Positions 39,001 through 45,000 of a DNA stretch of 64,000 nucleotides are shown piece after piece. Numbering within the stretch: the first letter of the stretch is position 1; the number at the start of each line of letters is the position of its first letter. The position numbers are program-made. The stretch is from an uncultured delta proteobacterium (GTDB taxonomy: Bacteria; Desulfobacterota; WTBG01; CAIYCZ01), in contig CAWDOY010000003.1 in NCBI GenBank assembly GCA_963803975.1, forward strand, positions 64,001 through 128,000, read 5' to 3'.

Positions 39001-42000
39001 ATAGCCTTTTTCCTCAAAGTCTATTGCTATCTTGATTGCTTCCTGGTCATCAATATCGGCAGGAGCGTCTTTTTCCGCCTTCTGCAGAAAATCTTTGAGT
39101 ACATTTTTCAGGTTAGAGCCTTTCACGGTGAGCGGTACGGATTCAGGCCAGGTACCCTGCTGTGACAATTTTTTGTGAAGCTCCTGGAGCCGCTGATAAT
39201 GCTCATTTTCATCCTGGGCCAGGGTGGCAAACATCAGCCTGCCCATGCCATTGGTAGTCCGCGCGCTGTGCATGAGGTAAAAATCGCGCTCCCGTGATTC
39301 ATTGTTCAGGGCAATCTCGATTGACTTCACTTTTTCATTAACTTGTATAGTCATGGTTTACTCCTCATTAGTGGTTATGTAAGCGATGAAGCATTATAAA
39401 AAGGCCCATAGCGGTTGTCAATAAGATATAATCGCTGCATGCAAGCAGGGGCGGGCATTATAAAAAAGGCTCCCTGAATCCAGCGGATCAGGGAGCCTGA
39501 TAATGCTCAAGCAGCGCTAAGCGCCCTTTTTCATATAGGCCATGTAGTCATCCCTGAAGTGCTTCAGGGTTGAGATGATCGGCATTGGCGCGGTTTTACC
39601 CAGCGCACAGGCCGAGGCTTCGATGATGGGTGCGGCCATCTTTTCAAGATAGCTGAGATGCTGCTCGTTTCCCATTCCGGCAATGATTTCATCAAGCATG
39701 TCACACATGCGGCATACGCCTTCACGGCATGGTGTGCACTTGCCGCAGGATTCCTGGGTGAAGAACTGGGTGAAGTAGCGGGCAATTTTTACCATGTCAG
39801 TGTCTTCGCTCATGACTATCATACCGCCCGAGCCTAACATGGAGCCGGCTGCTTTTAAATCATCATAATCAACCGTGAGGTTCAGCATGCCGGCAGGCAG
39901 CAAGCCGCCGGAGGGACCGCCGGTCTGAATCGCCTTCAGGGTCTTTCCCTGTGCCACGCCGCCGCCGATGCCCATGATAACATCTTTAAGTGAAGTGCCC
40001 ATGTCAACTTCAATCATTCCCGGCAGGGCGACATCTCCTGCAAGAGATATAACCTTGGTGCCTTTACTTTTTTTGCTGCCGATGGAAGCATACCAGTCGC
40101 TGCCCTTCATAATTATAACCGGCACATTGGCCCAGGTTTCAATGTTATTGATGCAGGTAGGCTTGCCAAACAGTCCGGCTTCCGTGGGGAACGGAGGGCG
40201 CTGCCGCGGCTCGCCGATCTTTCCTTCAATACAGGCGATGAGTGAGGTTTCCTCGCCGCACACGAAGCGTCCGCCGCCTTCCTTTATTTTAATAGTAACG
40301 TTCAGTCCGCTGCCCAGAATGTTTTCTCCGAGGAGGCCTGCTTCAGCTGCGTCCGCGCATGCTTTGCGCAGGCGGTTGAGGGCCAGGCGGTAATTATCCC
40401 TGATATAGACGTATGCTTCCTGAGCACCAATCGTGTATGCGCCGATGATGAGGCCTTCGATTACCGAATGGGGGTCTGATTCAAGGAAGCTCCGGTGCAT
40501 GCCGATCCCCGGCTCACCTTCGCTCACGTTGCAGATCAGGTATTTTTTGTCACCTTTGGCTGCCATGCAGCTCTTCCACTTGATGCCTACCGGAAATCCG
40601 CCGCCGCCCCGGCCGCGCAGGCCCGACTTAGTGATCTCCTCAGCGATATCTGCCGGCTTCATCCTGAGCGCCTTTGCCAGAGCCTCGTATCCGCCGCGGG
40701 CAATGTATTCAGTAATATTCTCCGGGTCAATGGTGCCGGCATTGCGCAAGATTACTTTATGCTGACCGCGGTAAAACGCATAGTCTTTGAGCGGGGCAAT
40801 ACCGCCTGCTGAAGCTGCATCGCCATAGGTAATGGTGCCCTCTAAAACATGGTCTTCAGCATCAATGCTGACGAGCGCGCGGTCCTTGAAGATCTCGCCT
40901 TTGGCAACAGCCTTTAAAAGTGCAGGCACATCAGCCTCGGTTATCGGGCCATAAACGATTTTAGCCTTTCCCGGTGCCTGTACCTCAACAATGGGCTCTT
41001 TGTGGCAGAGACCGTTGCAGCCGACCGCAACAACCCGGGCATTAATCTTCTGCGCAGCGCTTGCCGCTTTCAATGCCTGCACTGTTTTATCAGCGCCCTT
41101 GGCCATACCGCAGCTTGCCGTGCCAACGGTGATCCTGATCGCGCCCGGTGCAGGAAGCTCCTGAGCTTTCTTTTTTGTCTCAGCTAATGCTTTTGAATCC
41201 TTAATTTTCATTTCCAATCCCCACGTATCATCAGCAGTTATGGTTATGCCAGTAATTTCTCAACTTTAGTTTTAGCTTCCGGGCCCTGTGCCACTTCGCC
41301 GTCAATTACCACTGCAGGCGCGCAGTCACAGCAGCCAAGGCAGAGGGTTTTTTCCATGGTCATTTTTTTAGCGGAGGCCTGTGCCACCATGTTTTCTATA
41401 TTGCTCAATACGCCGTCCCGGTCTTTGAGATGGCAGGCGGTGCCATTGCAGATCTTAATGTGATGGACGCCTTTGGGCTCCATCCTGAATGATTTATAAA
41501 AGGTTGCCACATTATAAATAGCGCTCAGAGCAATGCCGGTTTTATTGCTTATGGCCCGGAGAGCTTCGGGAGGCAGAAAGCCGACGGTTTCCTGGGTATC
41601 ATGAAGAATGTAGGTGAGACTGTCCTGGCCTTTTCCGTGGCGGGCAACTATAGAGTCAATGCAGCTCAGATCAACATCCCCGAGCTCGGTATATTTTTTG
41701 AGAATCGTAGTCTTAAACGGATCAGGAACTATTTCCCGGACCACTTCGGTAACATGGGATTCGGTAACGCTGCCGCCCTTTGATTTTTGCCGCAGAATCT
41801 CAAGGAGTTTACCCCGGAATACGCCGCGAAGAGCTTCGGGAACTTCATTGAGCATTATCTCAAACATGATCTCGCTTTTACCCTGCCAGTGCGGTGTAAA
41901 AGGCGGGGGGGGCGGTGCAGAGGCTTCAGCAGCGGCCGGCGCCTTCTCTTCGGGCTTTTTCATTCCAAGCGCCTGCATGATTCCGGTGCGCTGGGGCTCG

Positions 42001-45000
42001 GGCAAATCATTCTGCACCATGGCCGCAACTATATCCGCGGTAACCGGCTTGCCGCTGGCACGCTTTTCGAGAAATCCAAAGAGCATGGGCTTGACCGCGT
42101 CGCGCATGGCTTCAGGCACTATTGCCATGATTTTACCAAACATTTCCTGACCATCTGAAGACCATTTTAAATCTGCCATTACATGACTCCGATTATAATT
42201 TGAAATTTGAGATTATCTATTTTGCTATGGTTGCTTTCTCTTCAAGCTGAGAAAAGACTGCGCTTATTTCATCCTGCAGCGCAGCGATCTGCGGCGCCTT
42301 CCAGTGGGAAAAGCGCTTCTGCTGCTTGATATAGTCAGATACCGGCCGCGGATTAGGCTCATCAACGGTAACGTGATAAAAACCGCCGGCTATTTCATAA
42401 AGCGGGAAGAGCCGCGACTCTACCGCCATCCGGCCCAGGCGCACCGTGCTTTCAAACGGGTATTCCCAGCCAACAGGGCAGGGGCACAGGATATGGATGA
42501 AACACTGGCCCGCGGTTTCCCAGCCGCGCCGCACCTTCTCAATAAGGTCAAAAGGATGGCTCGGACAGGCGGTAGCCACATAGGAAAAACTATTGGCCAC
42601 GGCAATGGCAGGCTGTTTCTTGATGAGCGCGTCCTTGTCGATTTTTCCCTCAACGCATTCATTGTCAAAACAGATATAGAGGGTGCCGCCTGCTTGCGCA
42701 TCTTTGGCAATGCTCAGCAATGCAGGCTCTGTCGTTGATTTGCCGGATGGCGCAAGCACGGTGTGCTGCCAGGGTATCTGCCATTGTGCTTTTTCAAAAT
42801 CTTTAACTCTTTCTTCCAGAGCTTTGTACACATGCCGGACTGCCAGTGCCACGCCGCATCCCTGACAGGCGCGGTGCCCCTTGGGGGCAAACTGCTCACG
42901 AAATGATAATAATTGTCCCGCGTATAAGCTGAATTTATCCATTAGCTCTCCTTTACCATGCTGATAGCGCCGAACCAGCACTCCCGGTGGCAAATACCGC
43001 ATCCTTTGCACAGCTCATCGTCTGCAGCAAAATAGCCATCCTCCTGGCGGCTGATGGCCGCATCAGGGCAGTACAGATAGCACAGAGCGCATCTGACACA
43101 CAGATCCTTGTCCCATTCTGGTTTTAGTTCCGGTTTGGTGCCCGGCTCAAAAGGTTTTGCCTTTTTTGTTTCCAGCAGATAGCAGCCAACCTTCTCCTGT
43201 TTAAATGTCTTCTCAGTCAATGCAGGATCTCCTTTTATAAACAATCGAGTTTGTGATTTATTGACCGGCCTATGCCTTTCCAGCCTGGGCGGGATAGGGC
43301 AGGGGTGCTTTGCAATTGACTTGCGTATTGAAGGTGTAATCCCCTTATACGATGAAAAAACTTATCGTTAACTCTGTAAAATGTCAAGATGTTTTTAGAC
43401 CATTACAAAAAAGATTGATTCGCATTACAAAAAGAGATAAACATGCATTCCCATGGTAACTTTTTAAATAAAAAGACTAATATTTGTCACAATAAGAATT
43501 GCGTGTTATACTTAATCTCAGATGCCGACAATTTATACAAGACTCCTTCAGGGCATCGCAATGTAAAAAAATCCCAGCGTAAAAACAAGTACCGTATCAC
43601 TTCTGCCAAGTCAATACATTACAAAACCGAGAAAAGGAGAGCAGCGTGAAAAAAGATAGCAGCATAATTCTAAGGATATTATTCGTTGTCTGCCTGTTTC
43701 AGCTGATTGCCGGGTTATTATATGCCCCTGCTTCATTAGCGCAATGTCCACCCCAGGGTTATCCTGACTATACGGTTGATTGTTTTAATGCATGGTGCTG
43801 CAAGCAGGATGAAAGCTGTTGTTCTGACCTGTATGGCAATTATGGTTGCTGCCCGCCAGCCACCGTATGCTGCTATGATGAGAATGGATATGCTGACTGC
43901 TGTCCCTCAGGGCAAACAACTACCATCCCCTCAGCTACGACATCTACTGTCACGGGAGGAGAAACTACTACAACGACCATCCCGGCAGGAGAAACGACTA
44001 CAACTACCGTCCCCGCAGCCACTTCGTCTACTGTCCCGGGAGGCGTAACTACCACAACGACTCAGGGAGTCGGCGGCCCCGACACGTATCTGGCTGCAAT
44101 CAATATAACGGGAACCGGTGCTCAGGATTCGCCGCAACCCTCAGGAACGCTGCCCGGCACCAGCCCTTCGGAAGCAGCGCCGCTCATGGCTTACGAAGGC
44201 ATTGGTCGGCCTATGTCGTTAATCATCCAGGACAGGTTTTTCCCGCCGCTTGATAAAAAGCTGTATGAAAAATCGCTGGAGGCATTAAAGGAAGAGAGAC
44301 TGTCAGCAGGGCCTAAGATTTCAACCTATGCTATCGGTGATGTAAAACAGTTCTGGGTAAAAGATGACAAGGATTTTGCCTGGCGGCAGGTCACGGCAAC
44401 CAATAAAAAAGAGGGAGCGCACAGCCTTATCTTTGTTGATAATACATCTGAACATGGCAGACGCAACACTTGAAACATACTCCTCAGAATTCGAGACAAT
44501 GTTTACCATTATTTCGAATAATATAGGTACATACAGTGACCGGGATGGGAACGGCAAAATTATAATATTAATCTATGACATTAATGATGGTGCCACTGTA
44601 CAGACAGGATGGCTGGCAGGATATTTCTGGAGCAAGGATTATATAAATGATTCGGTAACACAGCCCCAGGGGGTGCGGAGCAATGAAACGGACATGATTT
44701 ACATCCGAGGGAATGATCCTACCGGATGGACTACGGCGAATGGTGACTTTGCCGCAACCACGCTCACCACGCTCATCCATGAATACCAGCATATGGTGCA
44801 TTTCGGCATCATCTACTGGCAACCCCAGCTGGCCGGGAAAACCGGGAGCTTTGACGATACCTGGATAAATGAGATGATGTCCATGGCGTCAGAGACCATG
44901 TACTTCAAGAAAAAGCTTGCAGATAATCCGTCCTATACGTATGACGGAATGCTGCCGGGCGGATACCTGGAAGACCGGATACGGTTTTATAATAAAGACC

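Follow-up and report, generated by a model that had tools for sequence, protein, structure and literature searches.

The window analysed here, a stretch of 64,000 nucleotides from the genome of an uncultured delta proteobacterium (labelled G000), carries a four-gene unit, porD-porB'-bfuC-bfuB, which lies on the minus strand and has a terminator at its end. We tentatively read this unit, with a probability of about 0.45, as a non-bifurcating NAD(P)H electron hub derived from Por-Bfu that would serve GGR/FixC-like flavoproteins, PorB' being a catalytically dead scaffold for PorD. A group of uncultured sediment bacteria would then have retained two components of a pyruvate-oxidising enzyme, one now catalytically dead, as attachments of an NADH iron-sulfur module; the window copy lacks the parts for classic bifurcation and is most likely a donor to a large family of flavin enzymes in the same genomes.

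The genes of the unit are genuine and conserved, purifying selection acts on them, and their places, all on the minus strand, were confirmed (Table 1). The porD stop codon overlaps the porB' start codon (TAATG), and the porD start position is common to the orthologues. The survey's finding was likewise correct in listing further porD-porB-like-bfuC-bfuB operons without porA/porC on contigs C14, C16 and C25, as well as an intact Por-Bfu operon on C18, in describing the C16 and C25 copies as frameshifted (the C16 breaks are single-base indels relative to an intact orthologue of the same genus) and in giving the occurrence of short-form PorB' as 33 of 42 genomes of the class. In the following, the C3 copy is the copy in the window, the C25 type is also called the long type, and L031, L119, L131 and L139 denote relatives. 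A single-protein GTDB scan returned 2 loci, and no description of a porD-porB'-bfuC-bfuB family was found in the literature searched.

Table 1. Features of the porD-porB'-bfuC-bfuB unit and its surroundings (positions in the window)
Feature	Position	Strand	Basis
Ribosome-binding site AAAGGAG, 8 nt ahead of the porD TTG	43229..43235	-	sequence
porD, 92 aa, TTG start, 2x[4Fe-4S] PorD/KorD-type ferredoxin	42942..43220	-	TIGR02179
porB', 241 aa pseudo-PorB, OFOR beta fold	42217..42942	-	motifs, model, structure match
PorB' N-terminal arm, residues 1-22, candidate Bfu-docking segment	42877..42942	-	conservation, model
bfuC, 311 aa, two N-terminal helical repeats and NuoE/HydC-type [2Fe-2S] (C1) part	41244..42179	-	PF01257
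BfuC repeat 1, residues 3-73, DUF2621/PCP_red-like helical domain	41961..42173	-	similarity to repeat 2
BfuC repeat 2, residues 95-168, DUF2621/PCP_red-like helical domain	41676..41897	-	profile, model
bfuB-like flavoprotein, 564 aa from ATG	39517..41211	-	domains, motif comparison
Intrinsic terminator (hairpin and U run) directly 3' of the bfuB stop	39462..39498	-	folding energy
Sigma-70 promoter-like site TTGACA-17-TATAAT (12/12), 5' of the ferritin-like gene	39393..39421	-	
Ferritin/rubrerythrin-like gene, 175 aa	38827..39354	-	PF02915, E 9e-13

Motif comparison confirmed the loss of GDG from PorB'. The protein has neither GDG nor YMNTG nor the third cysteine ligand, while C26, C29 and C155 are present. 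The thiamine motifs are lost in 90/90 pseudo-PorB proteins and kept in 33/33 whole PorB proteins from porA/porC loci; among the 120 best PorB' homologues YxNTG does not occur (0/120) and a stray GDG is found in 5. The Mg/thiamine diphosphate signature of OFOR beta subunits, GDG with a downstream Asn (PMC5020499), is missing from PorB'. The domain VI fold is kept: the monomer model (pLDDT 86.5, with the N-terminal arm below 50) matches the OOR beta chain 5exd_F with VIA Z 19.8 and an rmsd of 2.6 over 199 aligned residues. Genes for alpha and gamma partners are missing from the pseudo-PorB loci, with porA/porC at 0/92 of them, a group that is defined by this absence and in which some loci end at contig ends (L139 and L131 were left out of the count as fragments). 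No close spare porA was found in G000.

Of the four cysteine ligands of the proximal [4Fe-4S] cluster, PorB' has those of CxGC and CP, and that of xTGC, the third ligand in PFOR/OOR structures, is gone. The motif (xATGC) is present in the C18 PorB and in PDB beta chains. The PorB paralog had been described as keeping its Fe-S cysteines, which does not agree with the loss of the third ligand in 90/90 pseudo-PorB proteins; CxxS is seen in 4/67 short forms. The description as shortened in all four copies does not apply to the C25 type, which is near full length (orthologues of 275-313 aa) but degenerate. What stands is the proposal of a non-catalytic adaptor from Por-Bfu, given the lost thiamine motifs, the kept fold, the purifying selection (dN/dS 0.10-0.24; 0.126 for porB' against L031), the absence of porA/porC nearby and the placement of PorB' in the Por-Bfu PorB clade (tree support 100/98); that it is an Fe-S adaptor whose ligands are intact is doubtful, as only three of the four remain. 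PorB' is best read as a putative catalytically dead scaffold for PorD.

The arm residues M1, D2 and E16 are invariant in 120/120 of the best PorB' homologues, and in intact PorB an N-terminal arm is associated with Bfu linkage. With the prediction fixed beforehand, bfuC/B followed 19/25 PorB genes predicted to encode the arm and 1/14 predicted to lack it, a link that amounts to 2-3 phylogenetically independent pairs with none opposite (p 0.5). The strict arm pattern overlooked 7 bfu-linked PorB proteins and many pseudo forms.

BfuB of the window holds a B5-type site, the FMN/NAD(H) domain, SLBB and B1, with neither B2 ligands nor a B3/B4 domain. In detail, residues C34, C65, C69 and E72 in the N-terminal thioredoxin-like domain, present in 26/26 C3-type proteins, point to a B5 site (this 3C1E pattern holds Zn in NfnB; PMC11829005), and the B1 cysteines C489, C492, C495 and C535 are equally complete (CCCC in 26/26). 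PF01512 and PF10589 match the protein, and PF10531 reaches 25.3 bits, below its cut-off of 27. No Fer4 match was found in window BfuB, which stops 29 residues past the last B1 cysteine; the C-terminal 2x[4Fe-4S] domain (IPR017896; B3, B4) is missing, as are the B2 ligands (C438, H525, C531 and C536 in A. mobile numbering), the B2 region reading GPSGGLLP where GGC is expected and the tail YMAYMKKGA. The B2 site and the B3/B4 domain define Bfu (PMC9304861), and their deletion in T. kivui HydABC abolished bifurcation, as stated in PMC11829005. Lacking B2, B3 and B4, window BfuB therefore falls outside the Bfu definition (Schut 2022). B2-B4 are missing from all 47 complete BfuB proteins of the C3 (26/26) and C14 (21/21) types, so that the survey's electron-bifurcating BfuBC core is not supported for these copies, and they are present in 12/12 Por-Bfu proteins. 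As far as motifs tell, the full Bfu core is found only in C25-type paralogues: 14/15 complete long-type BfuB proteins have B1-B5 and the canonical DEGDPGA(F/Y)MDR loop, with C1 and BfuA, and in the G000 C25 copy the B1-B5 motifs are spread across frameshifted pieces.

In the tree, window BfuB is descended from bifurcating BfuB. Its FMN loop is altered (SEGEPGIGMHR); the changes of D to S and D to H occur in neither the bifurcating nor the non-bifurcating references (PMC9304861 Suppl. Figs 9-10), and NAD(H) as the substrate is therefore not certain. The NAD contacts of C. saccharolyticus NfnB (PMC11829005) map to F206, K211, E321 and F341, which are kept in 26/26 C3-type proteins.

BfuC matches PF01257 (E 4.5e-33), its model has a pLDDT of 90.6, and the ligands of the C1 [2Fe-2S] cluster (C244, C249, C280, C284) are present in the window and complete in 28/28 C3-type proteins. 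The extension reported earlier was recovered as two helical repeats (30% identical, E 5e-11) in the C3 and C14 copies; those on C16 and C25 do not have it. PF11084 matches 33/53 family members at E<=10 (best 5.3e-6, the window protein remaining unmatched) and PF08369 matches 9/53 at the same threshold; at E<=0.01 no PF11084 match was found in G000. The repeat profile matches C-terminal domains of nitrogenase-like B subunits encoded in G000 (E 5.5e-4, 0.009 and 0.18), and the DUF2621/PCP_red-like repeat was an Atlas lead (0.88-0.89). PorD scores 75 bits against TIGR02179 (cut-off 60; scored with a 100-aa ORF).

The hairpin behind bfuB has a folding energy of -28.4 kcal/mol (z -5.7, 0/200 shuffles as stable) and a comparable one is found in 16/19 C3-type loci of families f1 and f2; a simple terminator scan did not list it. 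Variants had been said to end in rubrerythrin. A ferritin-like gene lies 3' of bfuB in 2/33 C3-type loci, separated in the window by the terminator and with a 12/12 sigma-70 promoter of its own, and is probably a neighbour and not part of the system. Direct coupling of a rubrerythrin gene to a complete bfuB, as in Rub-Bfu, is not seen.

The GGR/FixC-like family has 8-25 matches per genome in the same 33/42 genomes that hold short PorB', none in the other 9, and occurs in 0/387 sampled genomes of the phylum outside the class. This co-occurrence follows one clade boundary and therefore counts as a single event, not 33. A GGR-like gene is found at 25/29 C14-type and 19/25 long-type loci, and at 1/33 window-type loci, there on the opposite strand; at 8 long-type loci it lies immediately 5' of porD, the place of porC in Por-Bfu. 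Three linked flavoproteins score 62.6, 69.4 and 65.5 bits against TIGR02032, below its cut-off of 158.8. As the many matches within a genome share about 25% mutual identity, they suggest many substrates rather than one quinone.

The window operon encodes neither the BfuA of Bfu Types 1-3 nor a substitute subunit as in Type 4; a stand-alone BfuA-ferredoxin fusion gene (G000:C45:4738-5682) is the likely candidate for the missing subunit. A third copy of this kind is present in 21/21 genomes of f1 and f2, whose C3-type operons are without bfuA, and the f6 operons contain bfuA, no extra copy having been found there. The stand-alone proteins form their own clade (100/99) among short-form BfuA-ferredoxins, sister to the C14/C12 group (98/92) and not to the in-operon copy of f6; 11/11 copies examined are without bfu, por or GGR neighbours.

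We infer that four families of the class go back to an ancestor in which a Por-Bfu operon was duplicated, that porC and porA were lost and PorB degraded to a catalytically dead scaffold, and that the paralogues were redirected to a new, expanded GGR/FixC-like flavoprotein family, the window copy representing the most reduced grade. PorD, PorB', BfuC and BfuB would form one complex with the BfuA-ferredoxin encoded elsewhere. NAD(P)H would be oxidised or formed at FMN, and electrons would take the route B1-A1-A2-A4 and reach the fused ferredoxin and/or PorD, tethered by PorB' through its arm, before going on to the flavoproteins or to further reductases that depend on ferredoxin. Since B3/B4 are missing, we propose a two-substrate NAD(P)H:ferredoxin-like relay rather than canonical bifurcation. 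The candidate for true bifurcation, whose third substrate would be bound to a flavoprotein, is the C25-type paralogue, in which B1-B5 are complete. A relay via BfuA only would leave it partly unexplained why PorD is retained. The rarity of GGR-like genes at window-type loci (1/33), the tree position of the stand-alone BfuA-ferredoxin, the changed FMN loop and the bifurcating-type M234, F367 and GGPSG of window BfuB also count against this reading.

It is unlikely, in our view, that the window complex bifurcates by using PorB'-tethered PorD in place of B3/B4 as the low-potential exit from C1, with BfuA-ferredoxin as the other branch. All C3-type proteins retain a complete minimal B1-FMN-C1 site (PMC11829005), PorD is a 2x[4Fe-4S] domain like B3/B4 with both motifs kept, and at the positions given by Losey 2020 for bifurcating beta subunits (A/E 232, M 234, F 367 and GGPSG in T. 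maritima numbering) window BfuB has I, M, F and GGPSG, agreeing in three of the four, position 367 being F in 14/26 C3-type and Y in 19/19 C14-type proteins. However, PorD and B3/B4 coexist in long-type operons, which means that PorD did not come in as a replacement; the hinge ligands of B2 are lost as well, EGEPG with E agrees with the non-bifurcating rows of Suppl. Fig. 10 (PMC9304861), and sister C14-type proteins lose the cysteines of C1 (4/23 BfuC) and B5 (6/19 BfuB), which we count in favour of a possible drift away from bifurcation. The earlier reading, a canonical bifurcating BfuBC core with rubrerythrin output and fed by an intact PorB Fe-S cluster, is hardly credible: window BfuB is closest to bifurcating NfnB/HydB chains in the PDB and the ferritin-like gene adjoins, but the missing B2-B4, the missing third ligand and the terminator and separate promoter speak against it, and for the window copy such a core is already contradicted by sequence.

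Respiration of the EtfABCX kind, with the flavoproteins as FixC-type quinone reductases, the fused or adjacent ferredoxin as FixX equivalent and NAD(P)H electrons entering the quinone pool (the C25 type bifurcating), is likewise improbable. The order bfuA-ferredoxin-flavoprotein is seen repeatedly and FixC (7koe_C) ranks second among the PDB matches of the family profile (E 2.5e-19), but archaeal GGR (3oz2) matches better (E 3.2e-27), and the number and divergence of the family members suggest many substrates. A passenger role of PorB'-PorD, structural or regulatory (assembly, stability, redox sensing) and without catalytic electron flux, PorB' binding Zn or no metal, would fit the three ligands left, CxxS in 4 genomes, the replacement of clusters by Zn at the Bfu B2/B5 sites (PMC11829005) and a BfuA-ferredoxin and flavoprotein pair on C12 without porD/porB'. 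This seems quite improbable, as all eight PorD ligands are retained under purifying selection (both motifs in 31/32 C3-type, 29/29 C14-type and 23/24 long-type ORFs) and in one case, L119, porD-porB* is surrounded by genes for flavoproteins and ferredoxins, without a bfu gene in between. Very unlikely is a new enzyme with a three-cysteine [4Fe-4S] cluster, an open iron site and a substrate in the space vacated by thiamine: three invariant or nearly invariant cysteines remain at the old site and C91, D93, N94 and E95 are conserved, but CxDNE also occurs in true PorB, and the former active-site surroundings are the most variable region of PorB' in both short and long forms.

Among known systems, Por-Bfu (Type 2, Por-BfuABCDEFG), an uncharacterised system that Schut et al. 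2022 (PMC9304861) predicted and of which the C18 operon is a true example (Por-Bfu(BC)), shares the order porD-porB-bfuC-bfuB(-bfuA), a Type 2 BfuA with A1, A2, A4 and a Zn-finger tail, and a PorB of the same group with an N-terminal arm. The family described here differs in the absent porA/porC, the dead PorB, the loss of B2-B4 in the C3 and C14 grades, the DUF2621-like repeats on BfuC, the fusion of BfuA to ferredoxin (off-site in f1/f2) and flavoprotein genes in place of the Por head. Non-bifurcating NADH-linked modules (S. wolfei Hyd1ABC, S. aciditrophicus HydAB, NuoEF, HoxF, FdsBG; PMC7311640, PMC9304861) and the Hydrogenedentota sub-type II BfuB without B3/B4/B5 (PMC11406978) resemble the window unit in having FMN, B1 and C1 without B3/B4, and by analogy two-substrate NAD(H) chemistry would be expected. 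In contrast to them, window BfuB comes from a bifurcating ancestor and still has the B5 domain as well as GGPSG and M234; its SEGxPxIGMH loop is unique, and it is accompanied by PorD/PorB', not by a hydrogenase or Fdh. Rub-Bfu (Type 4, clade 57; PMC9304861) likewise shows bfuC-bfuB followed by a ferritin-like gene, whereas in the window this gene is a separate, rarely conserved (2/33) transcription unit and BfuB is incomplete. With OFOR beta/PFOR domain VI (OOR 5C4I/5EXD, M. acetivorans PFOR 9BT4) PorB' shares the fold (rmsd 2.6-2.9, about 200 aligned), the CxGC loop and the C-terminal CP cysteine, but it is about 65 residues shorter and has no GDG, YxNTG, third ligand, alpha or gamma partner. 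The repeats of BfuC share the pattern of DUF2621 (PF11084) and PCP_red (PF08369), score under the curated cut-offs and are fused to BfuC and, in 7 loci, also to BfuB. Finally, archaeal GGR (3OZ2) and FixC/EtfC with FixX (7KOE) are the best PDB matches of the linked flavoproteins, which like FixC/FixX are paired with a small 2x[4Fe-4S] ferredoxin, but differ in their low TIGR02032 scores (62-69 bits) and their multiplicity in each genome.

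The porD-porB'-bfuC-bfuB operons, in which PorB' is a pseudo-PorB without thiamine motifs, are a real, clade-specific and undescribed derivative of the predicted Por-Bfu operons. Apart from the copy in the window, the source genome contains three further porD-porB-like-bfu operons without porA or porC (contigs C14, C16 and C25) and one intact Por-Bfu(BC) operon on C18. In total, 120 loci around PorB-like matches were fetched and annotated against the genome's own proteins. They include 62 of the 64 short-form matches from other genomes and 58 longer ones, the remaining two apparently being covered by two GTDB loci. 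The architectures comprised the true Por(-Bfu) type and four pseudo types, one "long" (C25) and three short, the latter named after the C16, C14 and C3 copies; the C3 type is that of the window (C3:64001-128000). The openly readable literature that was searched does not describe any PorB that lacks ThDP and is joined to Bfu, and the term Bfu does not occur in the accessible portions of a 2026 PFOR review (PMC13768988).

The operons on C16, C18 and C25 are frameshifted in this assembly, as the survey's finding had stated for C16 and C25. Compared with an intact orthologue from the same genus, the C16 breaks are single-base indels, several of them within homopolymer runs, so that these breaks are probably assembly errors. 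That the pseudo forms are pseudogenes or artefacts of assembly is ruled out by dN/dS values, which lie at 0.10–0.24 for seven pairs of short forms. Of two long pairs, one gave 0.20 and the other was uninformative, its dS being 0.005. A close spare PorA partner in the genome can be discarded as well, as its other alpha subunits are only about 30% identical.

The reported presence of the short form in 33 of 42 class genomes was reproduced (families f1, f2, f4 and f6). In a sample of 401 genomes of the phylum, whole-profile matches to the short form occurred only within the class, its 18 best matches outside being intact PorB with GDG, and no match to the long-form profile from outside the class was as good as 1e-101. 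Scattered members do exist outside the class: a long form whose cluster includes a member named Ca. Schekmanbacteria, and which shows the order porD-porB*-bfuC-bfuB in locus L232, and a short form named Myxococcota. Close relatives are titled or named Proteobacteria, Deltaproteobacteria or Desulfobacterota, a taxonomy that rests on few titles since the GTDB scan with a single protein gave two loci.

All 33 whole PorB sequences from porA/porC loci contain the CxxC, third cysteine, GDG, YMNTG and CP motifs. The third cysteine, GDG and YMNTG are absent at the aligned positions in each of the 67 short and 23 long pseudo forms; CP is kept in all 90, and CxxC has become CxxS in four short forms. This count sets aside L139, which is a true PorB cut by a contig edge, and the partial L128. 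The missing cysteine aligns with the xTGC of PDB beta chains, which we take to be the third cluster ligand, leaving three of four ligands in PorB'. The deletion of GDG claimed by the survey is thus borne out and extends to YMNTG; its statement that the Fe-S cysteines are kept holds for CP and most CxxC but not for the third cysteine. Among the 120 best PorB' homologues, C26, C29 and C155 are invariant, position 153 holds C (98 sequences) or S (22), and YxNTG does not occur. According to passages of PMC5020499, Mg and thiamine are bound by GDG and a downstream Asn.

The model of PorB' (pLDDT 86.5) retains the domain VI fold, and neither PorB' nor a long pseudo-PorB has a Pfam match. In a tree of 53 rows chosen out of 152, the pseudo forms cluster with Por-Bfu-type PorB (100/98), with moderate support for their own monophyly (93/79). 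Degenerate PorB-like proteins also exist outside the Por-Bfu clade (P0091, P0092, P0101, P0105, P0115, named Ca. Aenigmatarchaeota, P0119, P0131, named an archaeon, P0147 and P0148), and the thiamine site of PorB-like proteins seems to have decayed repeatedly. Public sources often label these proteins as pyruvate:ferredoxin oxidoreductase beta, which is a misannotation.

Residues 1–22 of PorB' form an arm that is conserved, yet of low confidence in the monomer model. The same arm is found in PorB of Por-Bfu operons and is absent from 12 paralogues in por operons for which no downstream bfu gene was found, one of them (L144) having less than 500 nt of downstream DNA. Loci retrieved with the arm peptide had bfuC next in 6/6 cases with downstream DNA. 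In other families, with the prediction fixed in advance and one locus with less than 600 nt left out, bfuC/B followed 19 of 25 PorB predicted to have the arm versus 1 of 14 predicted to lack it, this single exception having a masked N-terminus. With a strict arm pattern, bfu linkage was seen in 13/13 arm-positive and 7/26 arm-negative cases; a tree-aware test had only two to three independent informative pairs (p 0.5). The arm is a good, though not proven, candidate for a docking segment to Bfu. Por-Bfu has so far been a prediction only, and PorB and PorD kept under purifying selection without PorA/PorC, together with an arm that tracks bfu linkage, give genomic support for both as the physical link to Bfu, with the 22-residue segment as a testable one.

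Features of the window operon, its surroundings and related loci of the source genome (window positions unless a contig is given)
Feature	Position	Strand	Remarks
porD	42942-43220	-	
porB'	42217-42942	-	
bfuC	41244-42179	-	
bfuB	39517-41211	-	
ferritin-like gene	38827-39354	-	downstream of bfuB
transketolase	36723-38719	-	two ORFs, one N-terminal and one C-terminal, separated by a gap; probably a frameshift
Cys- and Thr-rich, secreted-looking protein	43646-45875	+	two overlapping ORFs; no Pfam match
NiFe hydrogenase pieces	47400-52314	-	Tat-like small-subunit start and large-subunit start in short ORFs, beside HycI maturation protease; probably a frameshift in the assembly
DUF1329, DUF1302, MMPL and YCF48-like genes	874-7584 and 10510-12009	-	
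stand-alone bfuA-ferredoxin gene	C45:4738-5682	+	TTGACA upstream; hairpin and T run downstream
further bfuA-like gene	C30:35572-36429	-	
BfuA-Fd and GGR-like pair (L195)	C12:393-2794		without porD/porB'/bfuCB
three nitrogenase/DPOR-like N-B pairs (L211, L192, L212)	C3:156900-164640 (contig positions) and C50:21880-26775		C50 also has two NifH-like genes; a GGR-like gene and chelatase-like genes lie near

Directly 3' of the bfuB stop lies a hairpin with a U run (-28.4 kcal/mol, z -5.7), which is absent from the listing of a simple terminator scan; a comparable hairpin follows bfuB in 16 of 19 window-type loci of families f1 and f2. The ferritin-like gene has a sigma-70 site (12/12 match) upstream of it and adjoins the 3' side of bfuB in only 2 of 33 C3-type loci. 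From these observations it is concluded that the window unit consists of four genes; the variant ending in rubrerythrin falls away, and rubrerythrin is ruled out as output of the window complex. Each of the four genes is partly covered by RNA-library contigs from close strains, one contig spanning porD-porB' and one bfuC-bfuB; as such contigs do not themselves prove transcription, they were given no weight. Downstream of the window-type operon, 13 loci of f2 genomes (among L034-L046 and L057) have a gene for an RpoD-like sigma factor, mostly past a terminator, and a divergent panE lies upstream in 12 C3-type loci. Some of the DUF1329, DUF1302, MMPL and YCF48-like families also occur near GGR-like (geranylgeranyl reductase/FixC-like) and PCP_red-bearing loci (L142, L195, L213, L215, L216).

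The BfuC repeats, two copies that are 30% identical and well modelled, had been ascribed to all four operons. All C3-type BfuC have one or two of them, as do the C14-type BfuC with a single exception; BfuC of the C16, long and Por types has no repeat. The same helical domain is fused to BfuB in seven loci; C14-type BfuB with an N-terminal helical-repeat fusion (L084, L088, L089, L091-L094) have lost the B5 cysteines, and several of their partners the C1 cysteines. A fold search with the whole BfuC model listed rows for the C-terminal part, the repeats reaching only Z ~6 versus AAA+ lid-like bundles. The repeats resemble DUF2621/PCP_red with scores below the cut-off. PCP_red has 12 matches in the source genome (nitrogenase-like B subunits, flavin-reductase-like, DUF169 and other proteins), and the repeat profile weakly matches three of the nitrogenase-like B subunits. 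These 12 places are on unrelated proteins, including an MFS-like ORF and neighbours of sulfite-reductase-like genes, so that the domain looks like a lineage-expanded tag. PCP_red has a docking role; the BfuC repeats may be docking tags. Parts of a DPOR paper (PMC12022308) make no mention of PCP_red, and our search returned no literature on DUF2621.

A GGR/FixC-like gene is present in 25 of 29 C14-type and 19 of 25 long-type loci, usually after bfuA and a ferredoxin, the latter being fused to BfuA (BfuA-Fd) in the C3 and C14 types that lack B3/B4. The best PDB matches of this flavoprotein family are archaeal GGR and FixC. It has 8–25 matches per genome in the same 33 genomes that have short PorB' and none in the other nine, a co-occurrence that amounts to one clade boundary; none was found in 387 sampled phylum genomes outside the class (four candidates scored per genome). 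This confinement to the lineage within the phylum sample is a pointer to an unassigned third-substrate class. Some paralogues adjoin bilin-reductase-like, chelatase-like and nitrogenase-like genes (15 neighbourhoods), which makes tetrapyrroles a lead only as substrate class. Ferredoxin-dependent bilin reductase-like genes occur in this non-phototroph at L184, L189, L190 and L218 (L189 and L190 being near duplicates), three of them beside GGR-like genes, and nitrogenase/DPOR-like N-B pairs in 23 of 42 class genomes.

Window-type operons of f6 include bfuA-Fd; those of f1 and f2 do not, but one extra bfuA-Fd lies elsewhere in 21/21 genomes, forms its own clade among short-form BfuA-Fd and had no bfu, por or GGR neighbours in the 11 copies examined. 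The source genome's copy, the C45 gene, is the best candidate for a fifth subunit of the window complex. According to parts of two papers (PMC9304861; PMC12318220), the A4 cluster is the entry point of third-substrate electrons in Type 2 Bfu, so that PorD may dock on BfuA. The idea that Por-Bfu works without BfuA, of which C18 has none, is weakened by the bfuA-like gene on C30, which could be its off-site BfuA. The BfuA-Fd and GGR-like pair on C12 is preceded by genes for NfnA-like and GlcD/GlcF-like proteins and for a lone B1-domain protein.

Considering unbroken BfuB ORFs of at least 520 aa, the B2 ligands and B3/B4 are absent from the window protein and from 26/26 C3-type and 21/21 C14-type complete BfuB. 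The core is complete in 12/12 Por-Bfu and 14/15 long-type proteins and intermediate in the C16 type. An electron-bifurcating BfuBC core, as originally proposed, can therefore not be upheld for the window and C14 types. In the BfuB tree, window-type proteins fall within the pseudo-Por clade (100), and an altered loop arose with or before the loss of B3/B4; the window loop, SEGEPGIGMHR, matches none of the 20 rows shown in Suppl. Fig. 10 of PMC9304861. With respect to the residues of Losey (PMC7311640, in part), window BfuB has M234, F367 and GGPSG, with I at 232. All C3-type proteins retain the NAD-contact residues, B1, C1 and the 3C1E B5 site; in the C14 type, cysteines of C1 are lost in 4/23 and of B5 in 6/19.

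The most likely role of the window copy is that of an NAD(P)H electron relay without bifurcation, in which dead PorB serves as a scaffold; we give this slightly less than even odds (about 0.45). BfuB without B3/B4 is treated as non-bifurcating in sections of Zheng and Huang 2024 (PMC11406978). A split bifurcation via PorD is unlikely. In passages of Li 2025 (PMC11829005) the minimal site is B1-FMN-C1, of which the window type retains B1 and C1, yet B3/B4 are stated to be essential. A long shot is a joint reading, in which a new Bfu branch, "Ggr-Bfu", would use dead PorB and PorD as a docking adaptor, its pyruvate-oxidising head having been swapped for interchangeable GGR-like flavoproteins. 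In the window type, tethered PorD would replace B3/B4 in a split bifurcating core that would drive the anaerobic reduction of sediment pigments derived from tetrapyrroles or isoprenoids, and the DUF2621/PCP_red-like repeats would be docking tags that the genome's nitrogenase-like reductases share.

By the published definition, which in parts of Schut 2022 (PMC9304861) demands a BfuB with B1–B5, C-terminal ferredoxin domain included, the window copy is not Bfu and its C25-type paralogue is a Bfu member. Within this single genome, Bfu cores form a natural series that runs from complete (C18, C25) through intermediate (C16) to those without B2–B4 (C14, C3), and relatives additionally lose C1 or B5; the series offers a ready panel for asking which cofactors bifurcation needs.
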